Positions 7,001 through 64,000 of a stretch of 64,000 nucleotides of DNA are shown piece after piece. Both the position numbers and the translations under genes were made by a program. The notes under the pieces were generated by a model. That model worked only from the letters and a program-made list of their open reading frames with translations, searched no databases and was not told where the DNA came from. The stretch's first letter is position 1. Every line of letters starts with the position of its first letter. Where the stretch lies: the NCBI GenBank assembly GCA_000091205.1, contig AP006496.2; one strand, written 5' to 3'. This stretch comes from Cyanidioschyzon merolae (Eukaryota).

Positions 7001-8588
7001 TTCATTGTGCGCCCGTGTTGCTGACAAGTCCGATGTGCTGGCGCCTTGGAGCATCGGCGCTGGCCGAAAGCCTCCAAGGATGGCGGACACTGCGTCAGGA
7101 ATGCACGTCGTCGTCGTCGTCGTCGTCGTCGTCGGGGTCAGCAACGTTGACGATGCCTGCGTTGGCGGCGCTTCTCGCACGCTGGCATGAGCGGGTGCTT
7201 GCGTGCTGCACCCGACACTGGCGCCAGGTTGTGAATGCGGCATGTACGCATCATACTGGCGGCTTCTCGTTGGACACCTGTGCTCCGCTGCTGGAGCAGG
7301 CGCTTCACCTCGGCGCTGAGGCCGCGACCTGGATCGCTTTTCCGCTAGCAACCACCACGAACGCTGAAACAACACTAGGACATGCTGCTCAGCGTCGGCT
7401 TGGTCGTCATGATTGGCGTCTGCAGGCACAGGCGCTGGACGAATGGGCCACGGAGCTGATGCGACCGTTCAGTCCCGAAAGTGACGCGCTTGGCTGCACG
7501 GTGCTGCGTCCTGCTGCTGCTGCTGCTGCTGCTGCTGCCGCCGCCGCCGATTATGATGGTAATCATAACGACGGTCATGATGATCACGGTACACCCGCAT
7601 CGCTCCAAAATATCTGCAATGTTGACTCGTCAACCGCTGTAGTTGCCCTGGCGGGCGTACCCAATGCATGGCATTCGAATACGCTGGGTGCGCCGTTTTC
7701 GCAGCCGTCCACATCAGTCGACGGATTCTATGTCCAGGGCGCTGCGGCGCTGAGCGCACCTGTCACTCTTGGCGCGTTATTTGGCGTGCTACGCTCTGCT
7801 CTGGAGATGTTGGCCGTCTGGAGAACAAGCTGCTGGCAGCGTTTCATCACCAATGCATCGAGTCCGGTGGCAGCATGCAGCGTGGTGGTGGACGACGCGA
7901 ACGCCACCCATGCTGGAGCGCGCTTGCTAGCCAGCACACTCGAACGACGCTGGCTGCAGTTGCTACGCGCGTCGTTGGCACGTCTCTGGCAGGTCAGCGG
8001 GCCCGCAGACGACACAGCAGGCGATGGTGTCTGCCACTGGATCGACCGTAGCTACGGCCCATATGTGTTCTACCTGTACGGGACAGCGCTGCTGGCGCAG
8101 ATGCTCCCTGATCCAGAACGGCAGGCACTCTACAGACAGGTGCGGCATCGCTGCCCTAACTGGATACTGCCGACGCTCCTGCGTCTACACGGGGCGTTTA
8201 TGATATGGTGCTGCACTCGTGTGCGATTCCTCGAGACGTCGCAGCATGCGGCATCATCTGCAAACGAAACGGCGATGGCGTCTCCAGGCAGTGCAACGCC
8301 GCCGCTGCTGCTGCTGCTGCTGCATGGACTTGTCCATGTGCATGCGACGGAATGGGTGACGCTTTCGCAGCAATTGCTGCGCTGGCTGGAGACGGCTGGT
8401 GCGGCACCAGCCGGATTGCTTCCGTCAGCGGGTATGGCGTATGCATCGGAACGCGCGCCCCTGCCGGCAGTCTTGGCGCAACGCGTCCTTGCGCAGCGGC
8501 TCGAGACCAACCGCGTGATGCTTGGACAGATTCCAGCGCTCGATCATGTGACCGCATGGGTCGAGCGTTGCGTGGCAAGCAGCAGCAA

Positions 8589-8620
<32 letters not shown>

Positions 8621-11559
8621 ACAACACCATCCCGAGTGTCGGCAAATGTGCGATTGGCGCGTCCACTTGGACGTGCTGGGAGACGCTGTGGCAAGCGCTG
8701 CCTTGGTACTGGACATGGCTGACGCGAGTCTTGGAAAACGCTGCGCTTGGGAGCAGCGGATCGACTGCGCCCAGCACGCGGTACGCGATCACGCCTGCAC
8801 TAAGCATGGTCACCAGCGGTGTCGTTGTACGCGTCGCCCGTTTCATTCAAGTGGTACTGGCGAGTGCGCTGCTCGAGCTGACGCCCTGTGCAGAGAGCGC
8901 AGGCGCCCAGTCGGATGATGCGCGGGATCCACCGCGTGACCCAGACGCATGGATATGGGCACCAGAAATGACGGCAACGACAACGGTCGACTGGTGGGCA
9001 GCACACACCCAGCGCGCACTGCTGTTACACGCGATTGGCCCGTCGAGTGAGCGCCTCGCCGCGTTTCTCGAGCTGGTGCTTCCGCAAAACCAGTCTGGTG
9101 CTGCTGGTAACTCGACTGGTCTGCTCTGGTTTGTTCCAGCGTCACTGCAGGAGGCACACGCGCACCTCGTTGCCGATATGGTGCGTCTCTTGCATCAGGT
9201 CGAAGGCGCTGCGACGGTCCATCGTTTCTTGACGCGGCTGACGCCTCTCCTTGGAGGACGCTCTGAATACCTGGAAAGCTGGACGGGCATTCGGGCCTGT
9301 CAACGGCGTTGGTCGATCGGATTTCTCACTCGACTGGTGTTTTTGGCGAAACTGCAAGAGCCGGTACGCATACCTGGCAACGTGCACGCTCCCAGAGGCG
9401 TATCAGCGTCCGAAATCCACTGCTGCGGCAGCGACGAATGCAGCGAGACTGCTGACGCTTACGGAGCGCTGGGCGAGTCGTCGGCAAACGCTCTGTGTAG
9501 CGACCAGGAGGCAGCACTGCGACTGGCGGCCGCGTTGCAGCATCTTCTGACACAGACGCTGCTGCATGGACTGGTAGCCTCGCCGCTGCTTTGGGCCTCG
9601 GAACAGGCCGGCGCTCGTGAACGACCGGCCAGTCGCCTATGGTCGAGCATGGAGCCGCTTGTGCGCGCCCTTTGCCAGAGCGGCGATGTTGAAGACGAGG
9701 ATGCAGGAGCAGCAGCAGCAGCAGCAATGCCGTCGTGGCCGCTCTTTCTGGCGCGGTATGCAGCACGCTTCTGCAACGGGCTGGTGCGGCATCCAGCGAC
9801 AAGCGTAGCAACATCGACAACAATAGCGGCTGCAGCACCGCTGACGCATGTGCGGCACCTCTGGCTACCGTTGCTGGCGCGTTTGCGGCAGCTGGTGCCT
9901 ACAGCTTCGGCTGCGACGGTTAACAGCGAAACAAGCTGGCGCCGGCACCAGGTGTCGACGCTGCTGGCCAAGCTGGTAGACGAGCTGGAGGCGCTGCTGA
10001 CAAGTGCGCTCGCCTGGAATCATATGTGGTTGCAGGGGCGGCGTGCGGCAGTCACGGGTGATGAAACACCTGCTCTGTCGCGAGCTGCTCTGCAACTGTT
10101 CCAGTACCTCGTGGAGTTTGCTGGTATTCTTTTGGTGTTGTGTGCGCGCCTTTTGCGGGTACCAGGGCGCGCTCCGTTCTGGTCGCGAGTGATTCGTCTT
10201 GGTCGTCGAGCGCTGGAGGAGTACGCAAACATCGTTGCTGGTCAACGGCGGCAACTGCTACAGACAGAAACGTCCTATGCGCCTGGTAGGTCGCGTTCCC
10301 TGGAACACTTGCGTTGTGTCTGGATCGCTACGGTATTGCGAGGTCTCGCCCAGATGGATCTAGTGCCTAACGATAGCTACTATGCGAGTTTTCGGCGACA
10401 CTTGATTGCGGCAAGCCTCGCCCAGGATGCCCTGGATGCGCTTGTACTGGGTCTATGGCCTGGTTTGTCACCGACTTTGTTGCAGCAGCCGGTCGGCGAG
10501 AGCACGGCTGCCAGGTCCGAACGACCAGCGGTTGGTGCTTGTGTTCGCGAGTCGGATGCCGCTGCTGAGGCGACTGCGTTGCTCGCCCTGCTCGATTGGT
10601 ACTGTCGACCGGAGACGCTGTTCCCTGCAGGCACTGCTGCTCTGCAGCGACTGGAACGTTTTCAACAGGAGTGGCTAAGCGATCTGTGCAGCCGGTGCCT
10701 AGCCCAGGCGCAGTCCGAGCGTTGTGTGAACCTGTTGCAGCGCTGGCTCCAAGGTCGGCTTTTGACGTGTACCCGTCAGTCGTGCTTGTCGCATCTCAGC
10801 GGTGCTGTGTATTACGCAACGATGGCGAGAACGCTTGCCGTTGCCTGGTGGTCCGGTTGCATGCGCCACGTTGCTGTGCGTCTGAATCACGCAGGTTCAC
10901 CATCGATGACGACGACGACGACGACGACGCCAGAACAGCAACAACAACAACAACAACACAGGGCGGCGTTGCGCCCTGCAGACCGAGTGGCGACGGAAGT
11001 GATCAGCGACCAGTGCTCGGGCCGACGATTTGCACAGCGTTTTCGCAACAGCGTCGACTTGGCTGCTGCTCTAATGGAGTGGCTCGCGGCAAGCACCCGA
11101 GTGGATGCCCCCGCTCAAGCGACATGCGAGGAGACGTTGGCATTGCTGCTGGAAGCGCTAGCTGCACATGTCAGTGCCGGTTCATGTCCACATTGCGGTG
11201 ACGATCCAAGTCCGGCATCGATATCGTCTGACGAGCGCGTGCAGTTGCTACGTCGTCGACTGGCGGAACAGCGAGCACGCTCTGCCTGCGCAGCGGTACA
11301 CGCGGTATGGACGGATCATCTGGAGCGACTCGCTCGCAAGGAAGCGATGGACGCCAAGTTGTTTACCCATCCTAGTTGTTGTCGAAACTGGCTGGTGATA
11401 CAAGTCAATGACGTAGTGGAGAGAGCGGCTTGCTGGCGTCGGCGACCCGGTGATATCTGGCGGACCGCTGGACCTAGCGTCTTCGATGGAATGAAAGACG
11501 CTACGACGACGACGAGGACGCCACCGCCATGGTTGTGCTGGTCTGTACCTGAACGCTAA
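1045..11559 (+). CDS. Giant low-complexity protein of 3,504 aa, rich in Ala/Ser/Leu/Arg, with a SANT/Myb-like domain. No other recognisable catalytic domain.
   Basis: Uninterrupted 10.5-kb ORF starting at a true ATG. SANT signature WTPAERRLFFAELDRW...W...IFSKAIPSRCGYQCSNFY near 4.17-4.35 kb. In-frame homopolymer runs: polyT (aa), polyQ, polyA and polyS. Confidence 0.6.
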
Positions 11560-16851: not shown

Positions 16852-19189
16852 AGACGTAACGCTTCCAGCTGGTGTGCAGACGCCTCCCAGCGTTTCTCGG
16901 CGGGCCACGTACTATTTCTTCTAATTTCGTCTCATATACTTCTACTTTTCGAGATTGTCCAACAAAATTCCCTCTTGTCTACTCTGGAGGTCTGTTCTCC
17001 AGCACTGCCCATCTCCGGATATTGATAGCGGCGTTAAAGTCACGATTCACAAAATCCATACGTCTCCTGCAATCTCTGGTTGTACTTTCTGATGCAAGTA
17101 GTCCACGAACTTTCGCTCTCCTTTCAATTTGCTCTTCCGTCAGCGGTTCGTGCTTTGCTATTTCCGAACGGCTCGTTGGCACTTTTCCATCTCCACTGTC
17201 TGAAGTGTACAACCCATTTCATGGTGTGTATAGGACGTTCGGAACTCATGTACAGGTATCGTGAAGAAACGCCTTGCGCACTCTTTGTATGTTCTTGCCG
17301 TTGGAACTGGCGCAGTCCCTTTTTTCGACGCCGAGCACCCTGCTCTGTACGCTACTACGAGCCTCTGACTTTCATCCTCCTTCAGGGCGCTCAACTGATT
17401 GAAAAAATTCGCGAACGCCCGCTGCTTCCCACAATACAAGTTCATTCACAAACGAGCCCACCGGGGCTTGGTATACTCCTCCCACAGCGCCTCCCAATGA
17501 GCAGCGCGAACTTTCATGAATTTCCGAAAAGCTTCAAAGTCCGCTCCTCGGCTAGTCACCTCGCTCAAAGCTTCCATGTGATCCTTCACTCCTGAATTCC
17601 ATTTCTCGATTTTCTTCCTTGCATTCATTATACCGGATTCTCGATAGTATCTTGGTCTCGAGAACCTCAAAAGACGCATGTCTCTCTAACGAAAGTTACC
17701 ACCAGTACTATCTTCCGCACGCTTCGGTGCTGCGATGGTGATGATATTCGTATTCCCGGGGTCCGCGCCAACGACAAAGTCGTTATCTTGTACTTTCTGT
17801 GCCGCAGGATCCGCCTTCTTGTTTTCTTCATGCTTCGTCGCGCCAACGACAAAGTCGTTATCTTCCACTTTCTGGGTCGCAGGATCCTCCTCTTTCTTTT
17901 CTTCATGCTCCGCCGCGTCAACGACAATGTGGTTATCCTCCACCTCCTGCGTCGCAGGATCCTCCTCTTTCTTTTCTTCATGCTCCGCCGCGTCAACGAC
18001 AAAGTCGTTATCCTCCGTCTCCTGCGTAGCAGGGTGCGCCTCCTTCTCATCTTCATGCCTCGCCGCATCAACGACATGGTCGTTATCTTCCACCTCCTGC
18101 ATGAGAGGATCCTCCTCTTTGTTTTCTTCATCCTTCGTCATGGGCGCAGTCGAGGGCGGAATTGGACGATCTTTCTTCAACCGCCGATAGTGTATACACA
18201 TGGCTACTCCATCGGTTTCGATCAACCCAGTAAATACCTTTTGTTTGGTCTCTTTGAGACGTTTGAAATTGAAGATATTCTTCCAGTACGTCTCCCGGTT
18301 ATCACCGGAGAACTCCTTGTTGCTAACATTGAACTCCGGACAGATCTCCTTCATGATGCCATGAAGGATCCTGGAGTCGATACTCACAAAATGTGACTTG
18401 ATGTTGCACAACGGAACCACGTTGAACCGCTTACCCATTAGGAAAGCCTTCTGTCTCTCCCACTCTTCATTTTTCCTCACTCAGCTTCATCTCCGCCTTG
18501 CGTTCGAGTTCTCGATTCAGGAATACGAAATAGAGCAGGATGAGTTGATAGCATCTTTTTTCATCTTTTTTGAACTCTGATATTTTTTCTGTTGGATTCG
18601 CCAGCCCCATGACTGCACGGTGCTCTTGTATAACCGCACGGATTACAGAAGCCTCATTCGTGCTCTCGTTTGGCGCCTTCTTGTCGACAAATTCGACCTC
18701 ATCTTCATACTTTCGATCGTTCGTGATGCCATTGATAATCGCCCATATTCCTTTGCGAGACAGGCCCGGGTAGAGTGGAAACACGGTGCGTATTATGAAA
18801 CGTTCGAGGTTCATTGTCAAATGGTTCTTCAGGTTCGTGATGTGCTTCATCGCCCCGTAGCCGTAAATACCCCGGTCACCCTTGTATCGAGTACCGTTGA
18901 AGCTGTAAAAGGGATGTTTTTCGTGGGGGCCATGCACTAGCACATTTTCCCTCCGCGTTTTCTCTCCACCAAGCATCAGGTGTCGAATAAAGGTGATGTC
19001 GAAAAACTCGTCTGGAATCTCGACCGTTTCGATGTGCGTCACGTCTTTGTACATCTCCCTCGCCAAATGCATCAGCCCTGACGACGCCTTGACAATACTC
19101 TTGGAGTACGAGTCGACGCGTTTTTCGATAGCGTCTCGCAACTTTTCCCTGTACGGATCCTTGATATGGCCAAGAAGAAAGGCTCTCAT
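16852..19189 (-). pseudogene. Fanzor1-like (TnpB-like) RuvC nuclease gene, disrupted. Ruv[18 protein letters not shown], RuvC-II region IPVHEFRTSYTHHE, zinc finger, RuvC-III VNRDFNAAINI.
   Basis: Main ATG at 19189. One frameshift near KAEMKLSEEK/EWERQ. Nonsense TAG where B has CAG (GGNFR*RDMRLL). Frameshifts at PRWARL/MNLYCG and after MEKCQR. Nonsense TAG where B has TTG (RPPE*TRGNF). The coding tail ...RGNFVGQSRKVEVYETKLEEIVRGPPRNAGRRLHTSWKRYV* is conserved with B at the amino-acid level. Confidence 0.75.
17745..18125 (-). repeat. In-frame 75-bp coding tandem repeat, about 5 copies, encoding roughly [25 protein letters not shown], inside the Fanzor-like ORF just upstream of RuvC-I.
   Basis: Period 75 nt (for example 17877 and 17952). 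Copy B has about 2 units (27.16-27.26 kb). Confidence 0.85.
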
Positions 19190-19399
19190 CACCTTCTCGT
19201 CGTACAGTCGTCTTTCTTGCCGCCTTCGACGTAGGACCTCTCCCCTTCGGTTCTTTTTCTTCTCCTTTTCTTCTGGGCTCGGCACTGTTTTTCGTTTTTT
19301 CTGGCAGCCAGCGATACTGGGCCTCCAGGATCGTCGACTTGCTTTTTCATAGCTTTCCTTTTTCAGTTTTTTTAAATGAACCCGCTGTGAATGCTTCGG

Positions 19400-19406
19400 T
19401 TATATA
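19400..19406 (-). promoter_or_regulatory. Conserved TATATAA box about 50 bp upstream of the uORF ATG (19350) of element copy A.
   Basis: cgcagTATATAAccgaagc in A aligns to cgcggTATATAAcagaagc in B (25857-25863) within the conserved 5' end. Confidence 0.45.
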
Positions 19407-20799
19407 CTGCGAAAAAACACTTGGCCAGACTTGTTTGAGGGTTGAAACACCAATGAACTGAAAACTATATTTTTGTTCGACTCCGACGCAAATACAACTT
19501 TTACAGCTGAACAACACGCTCCTGGTCAGCATCGCGGTTCCTTTCAACGGCGGCATGTGCATCGCGTCAGTTGACTGCCTGATCTCCGAGATGCGTTCAT
19601 TAAGCGCAATGCGTCCATCGCACGAGACGCCACTCCAGTCGATGAAGGACACGTGTCCGACACCCCGCATTGGCACATGCGTGTTCGCATCGCATTGCAG
19701 CCAAACTAAAGTATCGTAGATAGGAAACTCACGTAGAACGATCTCTTGCTATAGACGCTGTCGCTGGTGCCGAAGCTACTGCCCATCGCAGTACCGCCTG
19801 GACATACATGGAAATGTTGGGACCTAACGCGATACCTCGTGATGCTTCTATCAAAAGCGTAGCGTTCTCTGCGGCTTACCGTTGTGTGGATGACGTATGC
19901 ATCACTCTTCTCACTAGGAATTTCGTTAGTTTTATTCATCGTAACCAAACTAGGTACGGTGGGATTCCTGAACACGGACATACGTTTAATGCCGATGCTT
20001 GTCACGCATGCTACACTGACGCTGGAATGAGGAACTGACCTGAATTGTGCTTCTATCCTGCGTCATAGGCTGGTACTGATGACCGTTCAAGTCATTTCCA
20101 TGCTGCTGTCGTTGTCTAACTTATGGTGCCTGCTTCGTCCTCCGGATCCGGTGATCTTGGCAGAGGCATAGCACACTCGACCGGCCCCCTGCTATCGGTT
20201 TCAGCTTCTCCTTGTTCACCTCTGGCCTGGGAGGTTCCCCCAGAAAGTTGGACCGCGTCAGCTCCGCCGGTCGCGCGTTCATCACCATTCATCATCTGAT
20301 ATTGATGGCGTTTTGTCTGAAACGCTCGTGATAGAGCTGAGGTCAAGAAGCGATCAATCTTGACCGACGCTATCAAACGAGCGGTACCAGAAGCTGAGGG
20401 CTGCAGCCGGCACCAGGTGCTCTGATGCCTACATGCTGGCCGTGAATAGTGCGTGACGAAGTCGCACAGCATGCCACGGTTTCCTAGTACGTAAACCAAG
20501 CACGTATTCGAAACGTTCGGGTTCAGTGTGATGACGAGTCGCCGCTACGGCATTCTGGGAAAATCATCCGAGTGCGCTATGGTTGTTCGAACATCGAGCA
20601 TCATCACGTGTATGGGTGCGTTTCACTGCACGAGTTGCAACGATCATCGAATCCACCATCATCCAAAAGTGACGAAAATTTACAAGCGTACCGGGCTCGC
20701 ACCTCCAGGTCAGGACGTGCCCACCAGCACGCAAACAAATTTCGTGCCCTGCTGTGCTTTCACCAAAAACGAAAGGAAACATGCGTTTCCTCGACCAGG

Positions 20800-25863: not shown

Positions 25864-26079
25864 CAGAAGCGTTCAAAGAACGTTCTTTTTCAAAAAAAAA
25901 TCTAAAAAAAGGAAAGTTATGAAAAAGCAAGTCGACGATCCTGGAGGCCCAGTGTCGCTGGCTGCCAGAAAAAACGAAAAACAGTGCCGTGCCCAGAAGA
26001 AAAGGAGAAGAAAAAGAACCGAAGGGGAGAGGTCCTACGTCGAAGGCGGCAAGAAAGACGACTGTACGACGAGAAGGTG

Positions 26080-28177
26080 ATGAGAGCCTTTCTTCTTGGC
26101 CATATCAGGGATCCGTACAGGGAAAAGTTGCGAGACGCTATCGAAAAACGCGTCGACTCGTACCCCAAGAGTATTGTCAAGGCGTCGTCAGGGCTCATGC
26201 ATTTGGCGAGGGAGATGTATCGCGACGTGACGCACATCGAAACGGTCGAGCTTCCGGACGAGTTTTTCGACATCACCTTTATTCGACACCTGATGCTTGG
26301 CACAGGGGAAGCGCGGAGGGAAAATGTGCTAGTGCATGGCCCCCACGAAAAACATCCCTTTTACAGCTTCCAGGGTAATCGATACAGCGATGACGGAAAT
26401 ATTTACACATGCGGGGTAATGAAGTACATCACGAACCCGAAGAACCATTTTACAGTGAACCTCGAACGTTTCATGATACGCGCCGTGTTTCCACTCTACC
26501 CGGGCCTGTCTCGCAAAGAAATACGGGCGATTATCAATGGCATCACGAAGGATCGTAAGCATAAAGATGAGGTCGAATTCGTCGACAAGAAGCCGTCACG
26601 CAGGAGCACGAATGAGGATTCTGTAATCCGTGCGGTTGTACAAGAGCACCGTGCGGTACTGGGGCTGGCGAGTCCAACGGAAAAGATATCAGATTTAAAA
26701 AAAGATAAGGAAAGATACTATCGCCTCGTCCCGCGATATTTTGTGTTTCTGGACCGAGAGCTCGAACGCAAGGCAGAGGTGAAGCTGAATGGGAAAAATG
26801 ACGAGTGGGAGAGACGGAGGGCTTTCCTAATGGGAAGCGCTTCAACCTCGTTCCAATGTGCAACATCAAGTCACATTTTGTGAGTATCGACTCCAGGATC
26901 CTTCATGGCATCATCAGGGAGATCTGTCCGGAGTTCGATATAAGGGAGACAGAGTTCACCGGTGAAAACCGGGAGACATACTGGAAGAATATCTTCAATT
27001 TCAAACGTCTCAAAGTGACCAAACAAAAGGTATTTACTGGGTTGATCGAAACCGATGGAGTAGCCATGTGTATACACTATCAGCGTTTGAAGAAAGATCG
27101 TCCTGGTCCGCCCTCGGCGAACCACGAAGATGAGACGGAGGCGGTTCCTGCCACGTAGAAAGTGCAGGAAAACGACTTTGTCGTTGGTGCGGCGAAGCAT
27201 AAAGATGAGGAGGAGGAGGATCCTGCGACGCATGAGGTGGAGGATAACGACTTTGTGGTAGGCGTGAACCCCGGGAACACGAATATCATAACCATCGCTG
27301 TATCCAAGCGTGCAGAAGATGGTACTGACGGCAACTTGCGTCAGAAGACATGCGACTTTTGAGGTGCTCGAGAGCAAAATGCTATCGAGAATCCGGTATC
27401 ATGAATGCAAGGAAGAAAATTGAGACATGGAATGCAGTAATGAAGGATCACCCGGAAGCTTTGAGCGAGGTGACGAGCCGCGGCGGGGACTTTAACGCTT
27501 TTCTGAAAATCATGAAACTTCGCGTTGCTCGTTGGGATGCGCTGTGGGAGGAGTATACAAAGCCTCGGTGGGCTCGTCAACGTATGAAACTATACTGTGG
27601 TAAGCGGCGCGCGTTCGCGAATTTTTTCAATCAGTTGAGCGCCCTCAAAGAGGATGAAAGTCAGAGGCTCGTAGTAGCATACGGAGCAGGGCGCTGGAAG
27701 ATCCAAAAAAGGACTACGCCAGCTCCATCGACAAGAACGTATAAGGAGTGTGCACGGCGTTTTGCTACAATACCTGTTGATGAGTTCCGAACATCGTATA
27801 CACACCATGAACGGTGATGTACGCTCCAGAGAGTCGAGATGAAAAAGCGCCAGAGGAGCCCTGAGGATATAAAAAAGTACGGAGCGCAAACGGAAGAGCA
27901 AATGGAAAGGAAAGCGAAAGTTCGTGGACTGATCGCATTGGCGAGTACAATCAATGGCAAGAAACGTATCGAATTCGTGAACCGAGACTTTAACGCCGCC
28001 ATCAATAGAAGGAGATGTGCGGCGATGGAGACGAGACCTGCGGAGTTGACAAGAGAGAATTTTATGGGGCAACCTCTCAAGGTGGAATTATACGATACGA
28101 AGCTGAAGTCAGTAGTAGGTGGCCGGTCGAGAAAGACGGGGAGGCGTCTGCATTTCAGTTGGAGACGTCTCGTCTAG
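26080..28177 (+). pseudogene. Fanzor1-like (TnpB-like) RuvC nuclease gene, disrupted. RuvC-I has mutated to GVNPG (D to N). RuvC-II IPVDEFRTS, RuvC-III VNRDFNAAINRRRC.
   Basis: Main ATG at 26080, overlapping the stop of a 53-codon basic uORF (25919..26080, TGATG). A 1-bp indel at AFLMG/KRFNLV. Nonsense TAG at VPAT*KVQ where A has CAG. A 1-bp deletion at RQKT/MRLL. TGA at HHER*C where A has ATGGGT. Elsewhere continuous where A is broken. Confidence 0.75.
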
Positions 28178-34894: not shown

Positions 34895-35827
34895 CTAGTT
34901 TGCCTGCGTTCCCCGATGACTCGCCAATCTGGAGGGCCAAAGTGGCCCACCAGCCGCCCATTCTGGATTGTAACCTTTCCGCAGATACTCGGCATGCATG
35001 CGTTCCGCGAGATAGCGCGCGCGTTGTTCGTAGAGGCGCGCATCTGCCCAGTAGGTAGCCGGGTGCAGAAGGCGCGAATCGAGCCCGGGAATCGCACGCG
35101 GCACCCGCAATCCGAAAATCGGATCTGGCGCGGACACCTGACTCGTAGGGATCGCATCCGTGGCGATGGCACGCACGATTGCCCGCGAAACCTCCAGGTC
35201 CATGCGTGCGGCACCGTCGGCAGCGCCGCCGCCCGCCCAACCGGTATTCACCAGGTACACCTGGGTGCCGTGACGCTCCAGTTTCTCATTGAGCAATTGT
35301 GCATAGACTTGACCATTCAACGGCATGAACGCTGCTCCAAAACAGGTGCTGAAAGTGGCGGTCGGCCTCAGCACACCACGCTCCGTTCCAGCAACCTTGG
35401 CAGTGTACGCTAGAATAAAATGATAAGCAGCCTGGAGTGGTGTCAACACAGACACCGGGGGCAAGACGCCAAAAGCATCGCATACGAGGAAAATGAATGC
35501 CTTGGGCGGTGGACCCTGGCGTGATGCCTCCCACTGCGGTATATTGTGGATTGGGCAGGTCGCTCGGGTGTTCTCGGTTTTGGAAGCGTCATCAAACTGG
35601 ACAACGCCGTGTCCATCCACGACGACGTTTTCGAGAATCGTGGACGGCTTTCGAATTGCACTGTAAAGAATCGGTTCCTTCTCCGGCGACAGGCGGATCA
35701 CTTTGACGTATATACCACCCTCCATGTTGCGGATCGCCGTTTCGTCCCAGGAGTGCTCGTCGTCCCCGATGAGTTTCCGCTCGGGGTCCGCGGATAACGT
35801 TGATTTTCCGGTTCCCGACAAGCCGCT
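34895..35827 (-). CDS. pckA: Phosphoenolpyruvate carboxykinase (ATP), exon 2.
   Basis: GLSGTGKSTLSADPERKLIGDDEH kinase-1a and downstream PEPCK-ATP motifs: ENTRATCPI, DAFGVLPPVS, TAKVAGTE, NTGWAGG. Confidence 0.85.
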   Translation of the reverse strand, partial: SGLSGTGKSTLSADPERKLIGDDEHSWDETAIRNMEGGIYVKVIRLSPEKEPILYSAIRKPSTILENVVVDGHGVVQFDDASKTENTRATCPIHNIPQWEASRQGPPPKAFIFLVCDAFGVLPPVSVLTPLQAAYHFILAYTAKVAGTERGVLRPTATFSTCFGAAFMPLNGQVYAQLLNEKLERHGTQVYLVNTGWAGGGAADGAARMDLEVSRAIVRAIATDAIPTSQVSAPDPIFGLRVPRAIPGLDSRLLHPATYWADARLYEQRARYLAERMHAEYLRKGYNPEWAAGGPLWPSRLASHRGTQAN

Positions 35828-35901
35828 AGATTTCACGCAATGGTTAGTGTTCCGTTTTGCTGAATCGGCCTGCTGCGTGCTTCTGCGATGTTCCAAACTT
35901 A

Positions 35902-36720
35902 CGCAAAACAAATAGTGTCCGGATTCGTGTCCGATAGGGAGCGCGTCGCTGCGCAGTGTAACGGCAAAATGCCTTTCAGCGGCAGCATTCCGTTCATGAT
36001 GGTGAACACCGATTTTTTCATTTCACCCGCGTAGCTCGTGCCAGCGATAAGCGCCAAGCGACGCTCGAAACCGAGCACAATAAATATATCCGAGTTCAGT
36101 CCCATTGCCCGATAATGTCGATTGCGCAAGCCGCTAGCGTAAACCACGGTAAAGTCCGGCTCGCCGAAGCTCGCTGCCTCCGCCGGACTCGATAGCGGTA
36201 TAAATATGTTGCTGGCGAAGGCATGATGCCAGGCGAGTTCGGTCACGACGCGGAGCTTGAGACGGTTCGGTCCGCTGGATACGAGCCCGTCGAAGACGAA
36301 CAGCTCAGGCAAGGCTGATAAATAGTTGGCAACCTGTTTCTGAAGTTCGTCGACGATTGTTCGCTCTATTGGCTGGTTGACCTCGCCCCAGTCGATGCGT
36401 TCCGCTAGGGGCGAGCCCTCGCGACGTTCGATGTAGCGGTCACGCGGCGACCGGCCCGTGAACTCTCCGGTATCCACGCAAAGTGCACCCGGTGGGTCTC
36501 TCGCTTCAACGCCCTCACGTCGTTGTAACGCCAGTGCTTTCGCCTCGGAGAACGGCAGGTTCCGGTGAATGGCACCAGGCGCACGCTGGAAGCCTAGCTG
36601 CCTCACCAAGAACTGCTCTACGGTTTCCGGAGACGTTCCGCCGCTGCTTAGGCGGCGTTGCCAAGTGCGAAGCAACCGTGGACCGCTTCTCAAGCTGGTT
36701 CGAAGGCGAGGAAACCACAT
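35902..36720 (-). CDS. pckA: Phosphoenolpyruvate carboxykinase (ATP), exon 1, with an Arg-rich N-terminal presequence. The intron is 35828..35901.
   Basis: GEFTGRSPRDRY, TSYAGEMKK and LPLHCAA motifs. The donor gc|GTAAGT at 35901 and acceptor tctAG| at 35828 restore the frame, giving ...ICFA-GLSGTGKST. Confidence 0.8.
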
Positions 36721-51909: not shown

Positions 51910-52791
51910 GTGAAAAAAGCGCCCCCGTTGCTGTACCGGGCGTCAAGCAGGTTCTAGCCCGGCCTCGAGCTTGGCTATCAGGTACTAGACAACGCTTCTG
52001 CGAACGTTTGTTCCAACCACACGCCACCAACCGGACGGAATGGTGTGAGAATTTGGGCGCTGCGATTCTCGCTCTGCGCCTCGCATCGGTATACGGTCCC
52101 GCTGCTGCTCGCGTACGCGTTCGAGTGGTACGGTATTGGATAGATTATTCTTATTTGTACAGTTATGTACCTCACGGATGGAGCGAACGTGCATGCGTGC
52201 CGAATTTCTGTGGTGCGCAGGCTGGTTGAGAGCGCAAGCGGTTATCCTTAGGTGCGCGATGTTTACCGGCATCCAGGGAAGCATACATCATGCCGCATCA
52301 GACCTCCAAGTAGCGCTAGGTACCAGCGTCTCGGACGGAACCTAGGGATCGTGTTTCACTCAAAAGAATTTACGGGCGCCGAACTTGGCTTGAGTCCCTT
52401 GAACAGCGCGTGTACGATGGACGTGAATGCCGAACGGAAACAGAACGTCTCTGTGGTACCCCTGCGGGTGCCCGCTCGCCGAGTCGTGTCACCGCTGCCG
52501 CGACCTGGTCGGAGCCGCGACGCATCGCTCTGTTGGCATTCACAGGGATTTTACGGATCCCTTTTCAGAGGCTAGGTTTCGTCAAACCAAACAACAGCAC
52601 AGGAGGTATGGATCCTTGTTCCGTGTCAACGTTTTTCCAAACTAAAAAACAGCATGGCGTCGCGGCAATCGCCCTCGTTCGAGACGCCCGCATTCCCCCG
52701 TCACGTACGTCAGTGCGCGCGACGCGCCGCTCCAGACACATCTTGCGCCTTTTGCCATCAAGGGTGAAACGTGAAGGGGGTATTGTATTTT

Positions 52792-55317
52792 ATGGCGGAT
52801 ACATCAGATAACATCGGAAGAGAAGCTTCAATTTCGTTGCATCAGGGCATTCAGACAAGAGAGGGCGCCCAAGAGCTGCCTTTTTCAGCGGAAGACTTGC
52901 TTCAAGGACGTACAAGGGGCACTAGCCCCGGCACTGGGTCGCTGGAGAGCAATTCACCCGACGTGACGCCGGACGACGCGGACGACAAAAAGGACCGTAA
53001 CCACGCGAAACTTTTCACGGGTGCATCCACAAGGACGCAACTGAGGCTAGCTCGTTGCCGCAAGGCAATTAGTTTGGAGTTTCACAACATCCACTACAAG
53101 GTTCCTCTCCGGCGACCGCCGCCGCCACGGAGCCGTTGGGAGCGCTACGTCACCCGGCCGTTGCGTTCCTTCTTGCCCGCATCCATCTCCGAGCGTACGT
53201 ACGGAAGCGTTGAGCTTCTGCACGGCATCAGCGGCATCGTTCGACCCGGAGAATTTTGCGCTATTCTGGGCGGCTCGGGGGCAGGGAAAACCACGCTGTT
53301 GAACGCTCTCGCCGGTCGATCGGCGGTACCCATATCGGAAGGCTCGATCCTGTTTAATGGGAGACCGCGAACCCATGCGACGAGACGCCTTATCGGCTAT
53401 GTCATGCAGGACGACATTTTCTTCAGCAATCTGACTGTTGGACAGACGCTCCAGTTCACGGCCGACATCCGGTTGCCACGAACCATGTCTGCCCAGGAGA
53501 AGCGGGAACGCGTCGATGAGGTGCTGCAGTTCCTTAATTTATCAAAGGCAAAAGACACGATCATTGGTGACCAGCAGTTCCGCAAAGGCATCAGCGGTGG
53601 TGAGCGGAAGCGAACCAATATTGCGGAAACGCTGCTGACGAATCCATCGCTTCTGCTTCTGGATGAGCCGACCAGCGGTCTCGATTCAACAACTGCGCTG
53701 GCAGTAGTGCGGCTGCTAAAGGATCTAGCGATCACTGAAGGGCGCACCGTCATCGCGACAATCCACCAGCCGAGCTCCATCATGTGGGCTGAATTCGACA
53801 AGGTTCTGCTTCTCGCGGAAGGCAGTGTGGTCTACTTTGGACAAGCCAGAGATGCGACGGATTATTTTGAGAAGCAAGGTTTCCGTCTGCCCTACGGGTA
53901 CAACCCGGCGGATTACCTGCTGGACTTGCTCGTGAGCGGCGTGCACAGTGGAGGTCGGATGACCGAGGAGCGGTGGACCACAGTTCCGGATCAGGTTCGG
54001 TGGGAGACTCGACGCCTTTTCGGTGGTCTCGATCAGTTCGAAGACCCGTCCATGTATCCAGTAGAGAACGACTATAACTTAACTGCATCGATGGTGCTCC
54101 GAGCGGCTTGGCGGCTGCACGAGGAGGAAATGCTTGCACGCGAACGGAAACTGTACGAGGAAAGAATTCGCGAGCATTCCACAATCGCTCGAGCTGCAGA
54201 TGCCTCCAAACGAGAAATGGAACGCGCAGCAAACGACGTTGAGCGGACGCGACCAACAGAGTCGCTGCGCAATGTGCTGCACAGAATCCGCTCGCACCTT
54301 CCAACAGGTCCGGATCGTCAAACAGCGCGCACCAACGACGACGACGAGAACAACCACGTCGTAATCAAGCTAGATTCAGCTATCAATGAGTTCGATGAAG
54401 ACGATACCGCGGAACTGGAAGAGATCGAACGACACAAGTATCCAGTTTCATGGCTGCAGCAGTTCCGCGCACTAGCTATCCGCGCTATGCATCAGCGAAA
54501 GGGTGTCTTGTTTACGTTCCCAACGCTTATCCAGTGCGTCATTATATCGGTGCTAGTGATGCTAATCTGGATCAATTCACCGAACAACGCGAATGGCATT
54601 CATCAGCGTTTCGGTCTGGCGTTCTTTTCGGGAATATTCTGGGCGTTCTTCGCGCTCTTCAACAGCATCACCTCGTTCCCGTCAGAGCGGGCGGTGCTCG
54701 CCAAAGACCGATCCTCCGGTAGCTACATGCTGTCCGCGTATTTTCTCGCCAAGACATCCGTGGAGAGCCCACTCGAGCTCATCTACCCATACCTATACAT
54801 ACTCATTGTTTATTTCGCCACGGATCTGCAACGAACGGCCCGAGCGTTCTTCCTTTTCGTGATCCTGCTCTCGCTCTTGACGCTCGTTGCGCAGTCCATG
54901 GGCTACTGGATCAGCAGCATGGTGATGGAGTTCAAACAAGCTCAGGTTATCGCGTCCATCTGGATGCTGGCTTCGATGCTGGTCGCTGGTTTCTATATCA
55001 GCGAATCGCAGATTCCGGTGTGGATCCGATGGATTCGTTATGTGTCCTTTGTATACTACGGTTACGTGGGTCTTGTGATGAATGAATTCCAGGGCTCGAC
55101 GTACGCATGTGTTAGCGACAGCTCCACGGCCAAGTCGTACCCGTCATGCGCGCAATCGCCGCCGCAACCCATCACCCCGCACGAGGTCTATCAGGCATAC
55201 AGTGTGAACACAGTGTTCGGCATCGGAGGGAGTATCGGCATGTTGATCATGTTTCTCGTCGTTTTGCGATTTTTCGCGTATTTGAGTTTGAAGTACATTC
55301 AAGCTGTACGCAAGTGA
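52792..55317 (+). CDS. ABC transporter, G subfamily (White/ABCG half-transporter: NBD followed by ABC-2 TMD).
   Basis: Walker A GGSGAGKTTL, signature ISGGERKR, Walker B LLLLDEPTSGLD. C-terminal 6-TM ABC2 domain. An insert of about 200 aa lies between NBD and TMD. First ATG at 52792. Confidence 0.9.
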   Translation: MADTSDNIGREASISLHQGIQTREGAQELPFSAEDLLQGRTRGTSPGTGSLESNSPDVTPDDADDKKDRNHAKLFTGASTRTQLRLARCRKAISLEFHNIHYKVPLRRPPPPRSRWERYVTRPLRSFLPASISERTYGSVELLHGISGIVRPGEFCAILGGSGAGKTTLLNALAGRSAVPISEGSILFNGRPRTHATRRLIGYVMQDDIFFSNLTVGQTLQFTADIRLPRTMSAQEKRERVDEVLQFLNLSKAKDTIIGDQQFRKGISGGERKRTNIAETLLTNPSLLLLDEPTSGLDSTTALAVVRLLKDLAITEGRTVIATIHQPSSIMWAEFDKVLLLAEGSVVYFGQARDATDYFEKQGFRLPYGYNPADYLLDLLVSGVHSGGRMTEERWTTVPDQVRWETRRLFGGLDQFEDPSMYPVENDYNLTASMVLRAAWRLHEEEMLARERKLYEERIREHSTIARAADASKREMERAANDVERTRPTESLRNVLHRIRSHLPTGPDRQTARTNDDDENNHVVIKLDSAINEFDEDDTAELEEIERHKYPVSWLQQFRALAIRAMHQRKGVLFTFPTLIQCVIISVLVMLIWINSPNNANGIHQRFGLAFFSGIFWAFFALFNSITSFPSERAVLAKDRSSGSYMLSAYFLAKTSVESPLELIYPYLYILIVYFATDLQRTARAFFLFVILLSLLTLVAQSMGYWISSMVMEFKQAQVIASIWMLASMLVAGFYISESQIPVWIRWIRYVSFVYYGYVGLVMNEFQGSTYACVSDSSTAKSYPSCAQSPPQPITPHEVYQAYSVNTVFGIGGSIGMLIMFLVVLRFFAYLSLKYIQAVRK

Positions 55318-61028: not shown

Positions 61029-62522
61029 TCAGTTGGATTGCAACGGGGCCAGAACACCTCCGGAAAGGTGCCTGATGGCAGCGTACATCCCTACCAGCGC
61101 CCGAGCATATGGATGAAGGCCCTGCCTCGGCGGCGTCACGAGGAAGCGTTCGCGCCCAATGCCCAGCGTGCCCGCAAACCTGCTTATATACAAGTTCCAT
61201 ATCCATTCGAGGACACGCAGCGGTACGAACGCAGCATGAGCGATTTCATGCGACTCCAAGTTCCCATAACACGACACCAGCACGCCGTTCACCAGCAGCG
61301 TTCCCGCCTCCGTCAGCGGCGCATAGGCATCTGCGTGCCGCACGCGCGTCATCGACTCGATGCGCTCGAGGTGTCCGTTCGCGCTGCGCACGTACACGCC
61401 CGGGTGCAGGCGCCGGGCCAGTCGATACCCCCCAGCCCCCAGAGGTGCATCTGTAGCCCATATTAAATGATTTTCCGTGATCTCGAGCAGCTGCCTCGTC
61501 GTCGTGATGCGCAAATACGGAATTGCGCTACCGTGTGGGATACGATCTACGAAGCCGTAGACGCGAGTGGCTACTCGCCTGGGCGTCCCCGATGGGTGCT
61601 CACCCGCGCTCAGGGTCATGACTTGGTCTCCGACGCGAAGTTCGCGCATACGCACAGCGCTGCCGTCGGGGCGCTCGACCAGCGCATCACCCGGGAAACA
61701 GACAAATCCGGATCCACTCGAATACGAGGGCTGGAACGCACCCGCTGCCTTACCGCTGTGCGGCTGATACAGCGGAATTTCGGTTTGTACCGGATTTGGG
61801 GGACATTTCGAGTTTCCGTTGAACTCTCGACACTGGTTTTGAGTGTCATAGGCGATCGTCATGTTGATATTGGAAACAAATCGCAGGTCGAGAAGTGCGG
61901 TGCACTGTGGCGAGATGCCAACGAAACCTGCCTCCGGCAAGTCATAGCTCTCACCGGGATTCAGTGTGAATACAAAGCATATGACTCGACTATCCTGGCC
62001 TATGGCAGCAATTGGTAAACTCGCACTCGAGCCTGTCAACGCAGGGTACGGTCCCGCGGCGATGAAAGCGAGGTTGTCCTCCAGGTACGCGGGCCAGAAC
62101 GCATCACCGAGACAATACGTTGACCCCGGCTGCTGGAGAATGCCGCGGTTGAGAGCAACAGCACCGCTCTCGTTCGTCGGGTTTTCGAAGGTCCACATGA
62201 CAACGCCCTCGTTCTGGTTGAGCCACTTCCAGCTCACACGCAGCCCCTGGTCGCTCACACACTCCTGACCGTCTTCGAGCGGAGCCGGTGGCGGGCTTAC
62301 CGGAGACGGCGCCGGCGCTGATCTCCCAAGGGTTTCCAGCTCCGCGTCTACATTCAATACGAGCCGGCTTGCACAGCCCCGCCCGGTACGCCCTCGGCCA
62401 CTTTCGGGTTGCGTCGCCGCACCGAACACTTCACGACGAGTAACGACAGCACTACTGACGAGGCTGCTGAGGCTCAGAACCAGTACTATCGCCAGTACTA
62501 TTTGCGTACCGTTTCTAGTCAT
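61029..62522 (-). CDS. Secreted Hedgehog-type Hint (Hog) domain protein.
   Basis: N-terminal signal peptide. C-terminal Hint module CFPGDALVERPDGSAVRMRELRVGDQV...ITENHLIWA...YAPLTEAGTLLVNGVLVSCYGNLESHEIAHAAF. Confidence 0.75.
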   Translation of the reverse strand: MTRNGTQIVLAIVLVLSLSSLVSSAVVTRREVFGAATQPESGRGRTGRGCASRLVLNVDAELETLGRSAPAPSPVSPPPAPLEDGQECVSDQGLRVSWKWLNQNEGVVMWTFENPTNESGAVALNRGILQQPGSTYCLGDAFWPAYLEDNLAFIAAGPYPALTGSSASLPIAAIGQDSRVICFVFTLNPGESYDLPEAGFVGISPQCTALLDLRFVSNINMTIAYDTQNQCREFNGNSKCPPNPVQTEIPLYQPHSGKAAGAFQPSYSSGSGFVCFPGDALVERPDGSAVRMRELRVGDQVMTLSAGEHPSGTPRRVATRVYGFVDRIPHGSAIPYLRITTTRQLLEITENHLIWATDAPLGAGGYRLARRLHPGVYVRSANGHLERIESMTRVRHADAYAPLTEAGTLLVNGVLVSCYGNLESHEIAHAAFVPLRVLEWIWNLYISRFAGTLGIGRERFLVTPPRQGLHPYARALVGMYAAIRHLSGGVLAPLQSN

Positions 62523-64000
62523 GAAGTGAAAGAAGCCGCTGAGGCCCTAAAGTTACAATCCAATTTTTTGCCTACACGAGTGACACGTAGCCACAAGCTG
62601 TCGAGGCGACGGTCGAGAATCTGACGCGTGTCCATTGAGGAGAAAACTCTTCACGCGTGTGATGGCTAGTGCGCCGCCAGCCAGCGCGCTCGCCTGGCGT
62701 GGATGAAGCAGCGACATTTCATCATGTTCAGATTTTGTCCGAAGATGGTATACGGGTATATCGTGGAGTGCTGCTCGGATATGTATTTGCCGTTCTCGAT
62801 CAGAGAAGCGCCTGCAGTTTCTCAATGGGCGCTTCTACGATCCACAATGCCCATACTAGTCCAGTCCAGTCCAGTCCATTCTTTCTACGGCGAGTAGACG
62901 CCGGATCGATGTAGTGATTCAGCGGGTGCTCTCCTTTGGTGCAAGTTGTCCGAGTCTACCTGAGTTCCTCTGCAGGCGCGAATGCTATGTAACACGATAG
63001 AAGCGACCACCACTCGTCTCGACGCACCGCGACGTACACGTTACCCGCACCAGACTTGCTGTCTGCATCAATAATTGGAACTATCCAGGGGCTCGCAGGC
63101 ATCGGAGCCTGATATACTTGCCTACCGTATTCTCGGATCGTGCGCTGTTGCTGTTGATGCTGCCGCTGCAACGGTCTTCTGATACAGATACAACGGCTTT
63201 GGGGTGCTTCTCAGGGCGTCAGCTCGAGGCTCTTGTCCGTTGAAGTACGCACTCGCGTTTCGAGTCATGGAAGACGGCACTCTCGACGCCTGCTGCGCCA
63301 TCAGCGTGACTGCAGACTGCAAGCACGTTCGCTTCCATATGACGAGTTCGCTGAAGCGCTCTGCGGACGCGCACCCTGGAGCACGCTCTTCAAGTCGTTC
63401 ATCGGATCCTCGGTCTGCAGAGCGGAAACCGTTTTGCTTTGTCGTACTGGGGGCATGAGGCGAACACCACGCGGCCTTCGCGGCTGACACGCGTACCAGC
63501 ACTGCAGCTCGGGCAGCGACATATGCAGTACTGTTTCCGTCGACCAAATGGAATACGCCTGCCTTGATGCATCAGAAGCGTTCCAGGCGAGTGTTTCGAT
63601 CGAGTCTTGATGGTCTTGGCTCATAGCACCTACACTTTTGGAAAGCATGTCCGTGTGCCGAGCACCTTGAACCTTTACGAAAGTCTGGGACCGGGGTCGG
63701 GACCTCTGCCGTGCGGCTTCCGGGAGCGCCTGCCGTTTCCCTGGAACGCGTAATCGTTATAGCGCCTTGCTATGCGCTAGACAATCCCTCTTCAATAGAT
63801 CACAGAACAGCGGTCTCACACTTGTGTTTATGGTCTCTGCATGCCAGTATTCTCGTGGAATCGAAGCAAAATCAGAGGCCGTAAACGCATTGCTGCAGAC
63901 GCAGCGCTACGACTGGCCGGAGATACGTACAGCCTCGATGCAAGAACCAGTCCACGCGTCCAATCCGTACCGATCAAGAAGACATGAGAGCTGGTTCTAG

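Follow-up and report, generated by a model that had tools for sequence, protein, structure and literature searches.

A Hedgehog-type Hog protein of Cyanidioschyzon merolae with a cargo domain related to archaeal and archaeal-virus proteins

Introduction

Proteins with a Hedgehog-type Hint module (Hog proteins) have been described in other red algae and in many protists (Burglin 2008, PMC2362128). Hedgehog-like genes, most of them in subtelomeric elements, were noted in the complete genome of the red alga Cyanidioschyzon merolae (Nozaki 2007, PMC1955436), and kelch/trefoil/Hint combinations are the commonest subtelomeric duplicated genes (Cho 2023, PMC9812998). Mikulski et al. reported H3K27me3 marks on the Hedgehog-like genes of this species (PMC5405695). 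A 2026 Plant Cell paper reclassified them as non-Hh Hog proteins in Burglin’s sense, counted 17 in Cz. merolae and found their expression to be mostly haploid-biased (PMC13353863). Here we analyze one such gene, at positions 61029..62522 (minus strand) of a 64,000-nucleotide stretch of C. merolae DNA (contig AP006496.2; “the window”). The presence of a Hog protein in an alga is already known, and this gene has long been annotated as hedgehog-like, with its family counted, mapped and expression-profiled. The new element is its N-terminal cargo domain, which belongs to an unnamed family of archaeal and archaeal-virus proteins and was probably acquired horizontally. Literature searches with the accession numbers, the locus tags and the name of a viral homolog, SIFV0066, retrieved no functional study.

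Results

The gene is a single uninterrupted open reading frame (ORF) in the ORF list of the window. As a complete single-exon coding sequence (61029..62522, minus strand) it comprises 497 codons, from an ATG at 62522 to a stop at 61029-61031. We take this ATG to be the first Met because just 8 in-frame codons precede it up to a stop. An exact-sequence look-up showed the 497-residue protein to be identical to BAM81371.1/XP_005537407.1 of C. merolae 10D, which is annotated “similar to hedgehog protein” and encoded on a chromosome of 852,727 bp. A first-pass annotation, made from the sequence alone, had correctly supposed an algal source. The closest relatives of the protein are found in cyanidialean red algae: F1559_000675 of Cyanidiococcus yangmingshanensis (59% identity over the full length) and the Cyanidium caldarium ortholog CDCA04G1190 (P0004 in our set, 48% identity). 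The gene is kept one-to-one in three genera. Taking the explanation as a whole, we consider it likely that this is a nuclear gene of C. merolae 10D encoding a secreted, two-module Hog protein.

The locus is most likely CMN299C, a tag that we infer rather than read from a record. We favor it because BAM accession numbers increase along the chromosomes, because a paralog of the same architecture (BAM81542.1) sits on the next chromosome (902,900 bp), because the best C. merolae match of the Cyanidium ortholog is CMN299C, and because the dehydrogenase and phosphoenolpyruvate carboxykinase (PEPCK) genes of the window fit the CMN284C-region synteny beside that ortholog.

To the C-terminal part of the protein, the Pfam model of the Hedgehog-type Hint domain (PF01079) aligned over residues 273-480, covering profile positions 11-208 of 213, with E=5.4e-33 and 114.8 bits against a cut-off (gathering score) of 29.7. 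At the level of sequence, a match of this strength to a curated profile excludes chance. When all PDB sequences were searched with phmmer, only Hedgehog proteins were returned, among them human Shh (7e2i_G, 2.2e-11), fly Hh (6td6_B, 3.2e-8) and Hh-C17 (1at0, 7.9e-4). In these alignments C275 (GFV-C-FPGD) pairs with fly C258 and the GCF of Shh and Hh, D326 (FVDR) with fly D303, T349 and H352 (TENH) with T326 and H329, and C418 (SCY) with C400. All five residues were confirmed by re-reading the translation, and they are invariant among four cyanidialean orthologs from three genera. No residue with a known requirement in Hedgehog is lacking. Four paralog lineages each match PF01079 at E<=1e-35. 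The first-pass annotation had proposed a complete C-terminal Hint module with the catalytic Cys of CFPGD and a TxxH-like core, and had suggested the Pfam search reported here; each proposal was borne out, and alignment failed at none of the catalytic positions.

We delimit the Hint module to aa 275-420 (61263..61700, minus strand) from the PF01079 match, the PDB alignments and the invariant ortholog columns; it contains D326, T349-x-x-H352 and S417-C418-Y419 (motif J). Its first residue, the catalytic Cys275, is encoded at 61698..61700 (minus strand; aca on the plus strand, TGT in the coding sense, read from the DNA), and V274|C275 is the predicted site of cleavage and esterification. The tail, aa 421-497 (61032..61262, minus strand), resembles an adduct- or sterol-recognition region, as judged from the extent of the Pfam profile, the alignment with Shh and Hh, and ortholog invariance. 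Following S417-C418-Y419, the segment HEIAHAAFVPLR was aligned by phmmer to Shh 355-384 and fly Hh 393-424. The tail has a K-like motif, H425-x-x-A-H-A-A-F-x-P-L-R, and an L-like motif, G468-L-H-P-Y-A, of which G468, H470, Y472 and A473 are invariant in the orthologs. Helices are predicted in the tail with low confidence in the full-length model.

At the other end, no Pfam match of any kind, the HhN “Hedge” signaling domain included, was found in residues 1-272 at E<=1. By its sequence, BAM81371.1 is a Hedgehog-type Hog protein and not a bona fide Hh ligand. The N-terminus, MTRNGTQIVLAIVLVLSLSSLVSSA, holds a 15-residue hydrophobic core, and aa 1-24 (MTRNGTQIVLAIVLVLSLSSLVSS; 62451..62522, minus strand) are a predicted signal sequence with a likely cleavage site at SSA/V (SSA|V). 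For the window protein itself this prediction is by hydrophobic-core scoring. For the CMN299C-type ortholog of Cyanidium, SignalP 6 returned “SP(Sec/SPI)” in the supplement to PMC13353863, and both observations agree with the signal peptide noted in the first-pass annotation. A hydrophobic N-terminus is present in all red-algal members of the cargo family and not in the prokaryotic or viral ones. The signal sequence is followed by a spacer (aa 25-87; 62262..62450, minus strand) that is poorly conserved in the ortholog alignment, has a predicted local distance difference test (pLDDT) score below 50 in the full-length model and ends in the Pro-rich APAPSPVSPPPAP. Between cargo and Hint lies a linker, aa 255-274 (PHSGKAAGAFQPSYSSGSGFV; 61701..61760, minus strand), which is highly conserved among orthologs and ends at the predicted scissile V274. 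This linker is probably flexible, because model confidence is low there.

The cargo domain itself spans aa 88-254 (61761..62261, minus strand) and was delineated by profile searches, PHROG, hhalign and an AlphaFold2 (AF2) model as a six-Cys all-beta sandwich of disulfide type in an unnamed family. The conserved Cys residues of the N-terminal half are at positions 88, 137, 182, 207, 231 and 240, and aa ~124-274 are more conserved among the orthologs than the Hint module. No Pfam or NCBIfam model recognizes the domain, in keeping with the Cys-containing domain of unrecognized type that had been described from the sequence.

To find relatives we searched 1.84 billion cluster representatives exhaustively by HMMER with a four-sequence profile of the N-domain. 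At E<=1e-3, 108 relatives were obtained, 54 of them at E<=1e-10. Three groups could be distinguished. The first consists of red-algal proteins with signal peptides; a Hint module is present in P0019 and P0021-P0024, and absent from Galdieria partita GJQ09644.1, a G. phlegrea protein, G. sulphuraria GJD09133.1 and Cyanidium CDCA04G1189. None of the Galdieria members examined carries a Hint fusion. The second group comprises proteins of ~200-280 aa without signal peptides, named members of which come from Ferroplasma acidiphilum, Ca. Parvarchaeum and Ca. Marsarchaeota, with others from metagenome-assembled genomes (MAGs) of Thermoplasmataceae, Nitrososphaerota and Conexivisphaerales. The third is made up of a few long bacterial proteins from Paraburkholderia and an Acidimicrobiales MAG. 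A further search with a 39-sequence alignment added the betalipothrixvirus proteins SIFV0066, AFV3, AFV7_gp54, AFV8_gp57, AFV9_gp63 and SIFV2, and tblastn located a cargo-type gene in 43 lipothrix- and rudivirus records, annotated as hypothetical throughout. In all, the family has more than 100 proteins, from Cyanidiophyceae, acidophilic archaea (Thermoplasmata, Marsarchaeota, Parvarchaeum and Nitrososphaerota), a few bacteria, and lipothrix- and rudiviruses.

Three non-circular checks point the same way. The window protein alone, over aa 93-229, matches the curated viral family phrog_6678 at E=5.7e-14. With hhalign, a profile of red-algal sequences only was aligned with an archaeal-only profile at 99.9% probability (E=2.6e-31, 177 columns) and with a betalipothrixvirus-only profile at 96.6% (E=5.4e-10). 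Six residues are invariant across the family (N114, R126, Y146, F183, E197 and G199 in window numbering), and the motifs W.F.N, L.RG, Y.FG.AF.P.Y, F.FTL.PG, EGGF (as F.FTL.PG..EGGF) and PPNP recur. These sequence and profile comparisons show a genuine domain that occurs widely within a single ecological guild and belongs to an unnamed archaeal and archaeal-virus family; at the level of homology the assignment is solid. The suggestion in the first-pass annotation that the cargo may be novel holds in part: the domain is uncharacterized and has no Pfam family, but it is not unique to this protein.

The AF2 model of the domain, built on 39 diverse sequences, is an all-beta sandwich of ~170 residues with a pLDDT of 90.7 and a predicted template-modelling score (pTM) of 0.87, a confident model that supplies the structure prediction called for in the first-pass annotation. 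A full-length run with four orthologs gave a pLDDT of 35 and was unusable. When the domain model was compared by Foldseek with predicted viral structures (BFVD), it matched proteins of Sulfolobus filamentous virus 1 (SFV1; A0A346LU67, E=4.3e-11, TMq 0.68) and Sulfolobales Beppu rod-shaped virus 1 (SBRV1; A0A3Q8Q407, E=2.4e-9, TMq 0.68), with nothing beyond these two below E=0.07. These are matches of prediction to prediction and involve no solved structures; they agree with the sequence evidence for viral kinship. No structural relative was found in the PDB, where the best hit of a sequence-profile search with the family alignment had E 0.55.

Genomic context gave few clues to function. At the 14 archaeal loci no neighboring gene was conserved beyond near-identical genomes, and the immediate archaeal neighbors are unrelated: a GT1 glycosyltransferase, TrmB, an aquaporin, an aminotransferase and a pyridoxal-phosphate (PLP) enzyme. 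A glycosyltransferase does occur near the cargo-type gene both in SIFV and in one Thermoplasmatales contig, a recurrence that is at most a weak hint of a glycan. In SIFV (NC_003214.2), SIFV0066 (4001-4711) lies between an S-adenosylmethionine (SAM)-dependent methyltransferase gene and unknown genes, with the glycosyltransferase two genes off. SIFV0066 is annotated as “contains a putative calcium binding EF-hand motif”; no Pfam domain supports this label.

Several features of other family members were recorded. Many prokaryotic members (within P0030-P0123, for example P0035, P0057, P0067, P0082, P0098 and P0107) start with M-x(2-8)-G-G-[ILV]-[LVI]-[PKR]; the motif sits 10-25 residues ahead of the beta-sandwich in proteins without a signal peptide and could be a targeting or processing tag. 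Other members carry extra regions in which no Pfam match was found: Trp-rich tandem repeats of ~45 aa (WWWYWGIQPEDIQ) in P0050 (Acidimicrobiales MAG, 432 aa), a C-terminal extension of ~800 aa in the Paraburkholderia-type P0078 and P0085 (~990 aa), and a Thr/Pro linker followed by repeated Cys-rich modules in P0026 and P0029 of Galdieria (563-641 aa). In Cyanidium caldarium, CDCA04G1189 (P0018; 338 aa), the tandem neighbor of CDCA04G1190, ends directly after the cargo and has no Hint module, while P0019, a metagenomic relative of 589 aa, has one. The gene model of CDCA04G1189 may be cut short; otherwise Cyanidium has lost the Hog module of this gene.

To examine the origin of the cargo, we considered its distribution together with a neighbor-joining (NJ) tree. 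The named eukaryotic members are all from Cyanidiophyceae, and the 14 loci confirmed in a scan of GTDB species-representative genomes are all archaeal. The prokaryotic and viral members come from several phyla of archaea, two families of viruses and some bacteria, and nearly all of them stem from hot and/or acidic environments. In the tree the red-algal sequences cluster at 63% bootstrap, with a Cyanidium/Cyanidiococcus/Cyanidioschyzon subclade at 98% and Galdieria as the other branch. The nearest outgroups by distance are proteins of the Parvarchaeum, Ferroplasma and Marsarchaeota type, which have in common with the algal proteins the QC...CPPNP Cys pair.

The orthogroup table in the supplement to PMC13353863 places the subtelomeric copies in OG0000014. 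OG0000012 holds the four C. merolae genes CMN299C, CMN300C, CMO184C and CMO185C, together with two genes of Galdieria partita and four of each of Cyanidiococcus and Cyanidium. Expression of OG0000012 members is haploid-biased; the Cyanidiococcus ortholog of CMO185C has a log fold change (logFC) of -10.2, and its protein was much more abundant in the haploid proteome. This bias is in line with a role at the surface of the wall-less haploid cell and does not establish it.

In its chromosomal setting the gene differs from the subtelomeric copies. The telomere repeat AATGGGGGG does not occur in the 64-kb window, and neither phmmer on the six-frame translation nor tblastn with seven paralogs and orthologs found a second Hint or N-domain copy in it. 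The neighbors in the window encode an ABCG transporter, a PQ-loop protein, PsbP, the glucosidase II beta subunit, a Na+/H+ exchanger, PEPCK, an epimerase/dehydrogenase and Avl9. A subtelomeric kelch+Hog copy was rejected on the lack of AATGGGGGG and of a second copy, the housekeeping neighbors, the lack of a kelch match and the separate orthogroup in PMC13353863; the gene is chromosome-internal. CMN300C, expected in tandem yet absent from the window, must lie past position 64000.

An ABCG-type half-transporter gene (ABC_tran and ABC-2 membrane domains; 52771-55317, plus strand) lies ~6 kb from the Hog gene, and in Cyanidium an oxysterol-binding-protein gene (CMN301C-like) is near the orthologous pair. 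The proximity of two lipid- or sterol-handling genes to a putative sterol transferase is probably a coincidence.

Three further features of the window were seen. At 1045-11559 (plus strand) an uninterrupted ORF of 3504 aa encodes a giant protein with no Pfam match at E<=1e-5. At 34895-35911 (minus strand) a 338-aa ORF matches PEPCK_ATP over profile positions 217-464, and a 273-aa ORF on the same strand (35899-36720, minus) shares 13 bases with it. A frameshift or a small intron may divide the PEPCK gene, or the arrangement may be an artefact of start-codon choice. G+C content dips to 0.483 at 18001-20000 and to 0.497 at 26001-28000, against about 0.57 elsewhere in the window, and the second interval also has strong GC and AT skew.

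Discussion

By analogy with metazoan Hedgehog, the precursor would enter the endoplasmic reticulum, and Cys275, aided by T349 and H352, would attack the carbonyl of Val274 in an N-to-S acyl shift that yields a thioester. Self-cleavage of the window protein is, on this analogy, highly probable. The tail would recruit, and D326 activate, a nucleophile that resolves the thioester; a membrane sterol is the most likely candidate. The Hog fragment would then be discarded. As an outcome, the beta-sandwich would be held by its C-terminus at the outer leaflet of the plasma membrane. In fly Hh-C, D303 is required for cholesterol transfer and not for thioester formation. We favor a sterol as the nucleophile because the Asp equivalent to D303 is conserved, because the motif-J cysteine (C418) is retained, and because the tail has the Hh-like K motif in HEIAHAAFVPLR and a GLHPYA within the Pfam profile. 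That the cargo (aa ~25-274) becomes ester-linked to a membrane sterol and so anchored on the outside of the plasma membrane seems to us about an even prospect, judged from the metazoan precedent. Red-algal sterols are mainly cholesterol (PMC10817344).

For the cargo, we propose that the domain would have entered the cyanidiophycean ancestor in one horizontal transfer from an acidophilic archaeon, and would then have gained further cysteines and a signal peptide. Fusion to a pre-existing eukaryotic Hog module would have followed in the Cyanidium/Cyanidiococcus/Cyanidioschyzon lineage, once this had separated from Galdieria, and the cargo-Hog gene would have been duplicated into two tandem pairs, CMN299C/300C and CMO184C/185C. 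Horizontal gene transfer (HGT) into the alga is suggested because the named eukaryotic members are confined to Cyanidiophyceae, all 14 GTDB loci are archaeal and acidophilic archaea supply the nearest outgroups. Acquisition of prokaryotic genes by Cyanidiophyceae is documented (PMC6629376), and on balance we think that HGT from thermoacidophilic archaea is the probable route. The direction of transfer and the function of the cargo are tentative assignments. Our best guess is that the cargo serves the wall-less haploid cell as a surface-binding or coat module that may bind glycans. The full scenario, in which a beta-sandwich native to thermoacidophilic archaea and their filamentous viruses was captured by the ancestor of the Cyanidiophyceae, provided with a signal peptide, later fused to Hog in the Cyanidium/Cyanidioschyzon lineage and displayed as a sterol-anchored protein on wall-less haploid cells or gametes, is put forward tentatively, and we rate it below an even chance. 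If it is true, the protein is an inter-domain chimera at the level of domains, and its cargo is the first of any Hog protein that can be traced to a source outside eukaryotes.

Several points weigh against this proposal. The catalytic Cys is preceded by Val and not by Gly, and a beta-branched residue at -1 slows the N-S acyl shift of Hint domains in inteins; among the paralogs this position varies (V, I, H, S, G and T). In the tail, the L-like GLHPYA was not aligned by phmmer and is backed by the extent of the Pfam profile and by eye. The literature searched contains no report of cleavage or lipidation for a red-algal Hog. The case for HGT draws on distribution and on an NJ tree, a simple method, in which monophyly of the red algae has 63% support, and its strength is moderate; most family members are metagenomic proteins without taxonomic labels. 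Finally, the Cyanidium ortholog of CMN299C is only mildly haploid-biased (logFC -1.13; PMC13353863).

One alternative is that the Hint module cleaves and that water or a small thiol then resolves the thioester, so that the cargo is secreted in soluble form and the tail is a generic adduct recognition region (ARR). This term was introduced for nematode Hh-related proteins, for which cholesterol as the adduct is unclear (PMC2362128), and the unaligned L-like motif fits such a reading. However, D326, the counterpart of fly D303, is invariant, and the tail is unusually Hh-like: its K-like motif can be aligned to Shh and Hh, and the alignment of the Hh-derived Pfam profile extends to position 208 of 213. 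Motifs K and L are found primarily in true Hh proteins according to Burglin (PMC2362128). We consider a soluble product unlikely, though it deserves serious attention, and favor attachment to a sterol.

A second alternative concerns the direction of transfer. The cargo could be an ancient eukaryotic or red-algal domain, with the prokaryotic and viral copies derived by transfer out, or the two sides could go back to very old common ancestry. The red algae do form a separate branch of the tree and are not nested in a specific archaeal clade, most homologs are unnamed metagenomic proteins, and the main text of the published catalogue of HGT in Cyanidiales does not mention the family. Against this, Cyanidiophyceae are the only named eukaryotes with the domain although EukProt and NCBI eukaryotes were in the searched collections; the prokaryotic and viral side is far more diverse; all partners come from one type of habitat, hot and/or acidic; and the signal peptide, the extra Cys and the Hog fusion are derived additions specific to eukaryotes. 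An old eukaryotic origin is accordingly rather improbable in our view, and entry from archaea is preferred.

It could also be speculated that the cargo is a pherophorin-type domain of the algal extracellular matrix, since UniRef labels the Cyanidium member CDCA01G0095 (P0025) as “Pherophorin domain-containing protein”. Pfam scans of P0025, the window domain and eight other members gave no Pherophorin or other N-domain match at E<=10. With all ten members, P0025 included, lacking such a match, we reject this identity as very unlikely. Equally slight is the chance that the Hint module is a degenerate, non-catalytic remnant and that the protein works uncleaved: apart from the atypical Val at -1 nothing specific speaks for it, whereas all catalytic residues are present and invariant over about 50% sequence divergence, and the Hint half is clearly constrained in the four paralog lineages. 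That the module is a true intein or a mobile element for protein splicing, as the shared Hint fold, the grouping of C. merolae Hedgehog genes under “protein splicing” in PMC5405695, the term “intein-containing” in papers and weak sub-threshold matches to other Hint-fold models might suggest, is extremely improbable, given that those models (Hint_2 14.2, Vint 12.2 and an intein-containing radical-SAM family of NCBIfam 12.5 bits) are all far below their cut-offs and below the PF01079 score, that the protein ends 77 residues past motif J in an Hh-like tail without a C-extein, and that the N-terminal part is a complete independent domain and not a split host protein.

Comparison with known systems

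Like the Hh-C/Hog region of metazoan Hedgehog (fly Hh, human Shh), the window protein falls in PF01079 and has the same Cys/Asp/TxxH/SCY set, a K-type motif after SCY, a signal-bearing precursor and a cargo N-terminal of the scissile bond. Unlike metazoan Hedgehog, it has a cargo other than HhN “Hedge” and Val instead of Gly before the Cys. There is no evidence of a Patched/Smoothened-type pathway for it, and sterol transfer would follow by analogy.

With the non-Hh Hogs (those of protists, the nematode warthog/groundhog/quahog proteins, the choanoflagellate Hoglet and the red-algal proteins; PMC2362128), the window protein shares a signal peptide, a lineage-specific Cys-containing cargo and Hog. 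It differs from them in its Hh-like K motif and in having a cargo with clear non-eukaryotic homologs. Moreover, in other red-algal and moss Hogs the motif-J Cys is replaced by Ser, Thr or Asp (PMC2362128), whereas the window protein keeps C418. The subtelomeric kelch+Hog family (PMC1955436, PMC9812998; OG0000014) is from the same genome, has the same annotation and Hog type, and is counted within the same 17 Hog genes. That family has a kelch (galactose-oxidase-like) domain, a Thr/Pro/Ala linker and a location in subtelomeric blocks, while the window gene has no kelch domain and falls in OG0000012 (PMC13353863).

The cargo is the same domain, by profile and predicted fold, as that of phrog_6678/SIFV0066 (“conserved lipothrixviral protein”), Ferroplasma AGO60202.1 and Marsarchaeota PSN90664.1, with the invariant N, R, Y, F, E and G and the motifs in common. 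The prokaryotic and viral proteins of this type are ~200-280 aa long and have neither signal peptide nor Hint fusion; in red algae a signal peptide and two more pairs of Cys are present in addition, and in Cyanidiales also the Hog module. To our knowledge, clear homologs beyond the eukaryotes had not been reported for any Hog cargo before this one. In keeping both the motif-J Cys and the K-type tail motif, the non-subtelomeric lineage (CMN299C/300C, CMO184C/185C) is unusually Hedgehog-like, and in a genetically tractable alga it makes a good test case for sterol attachment by non-metazoan Hog modules. The cargo ties an uncharacterized family of proteins, found in acidophilic archaea and in viruses of archaea, to a putative eukaryotic surface protein, and it offers a handle for both fields.

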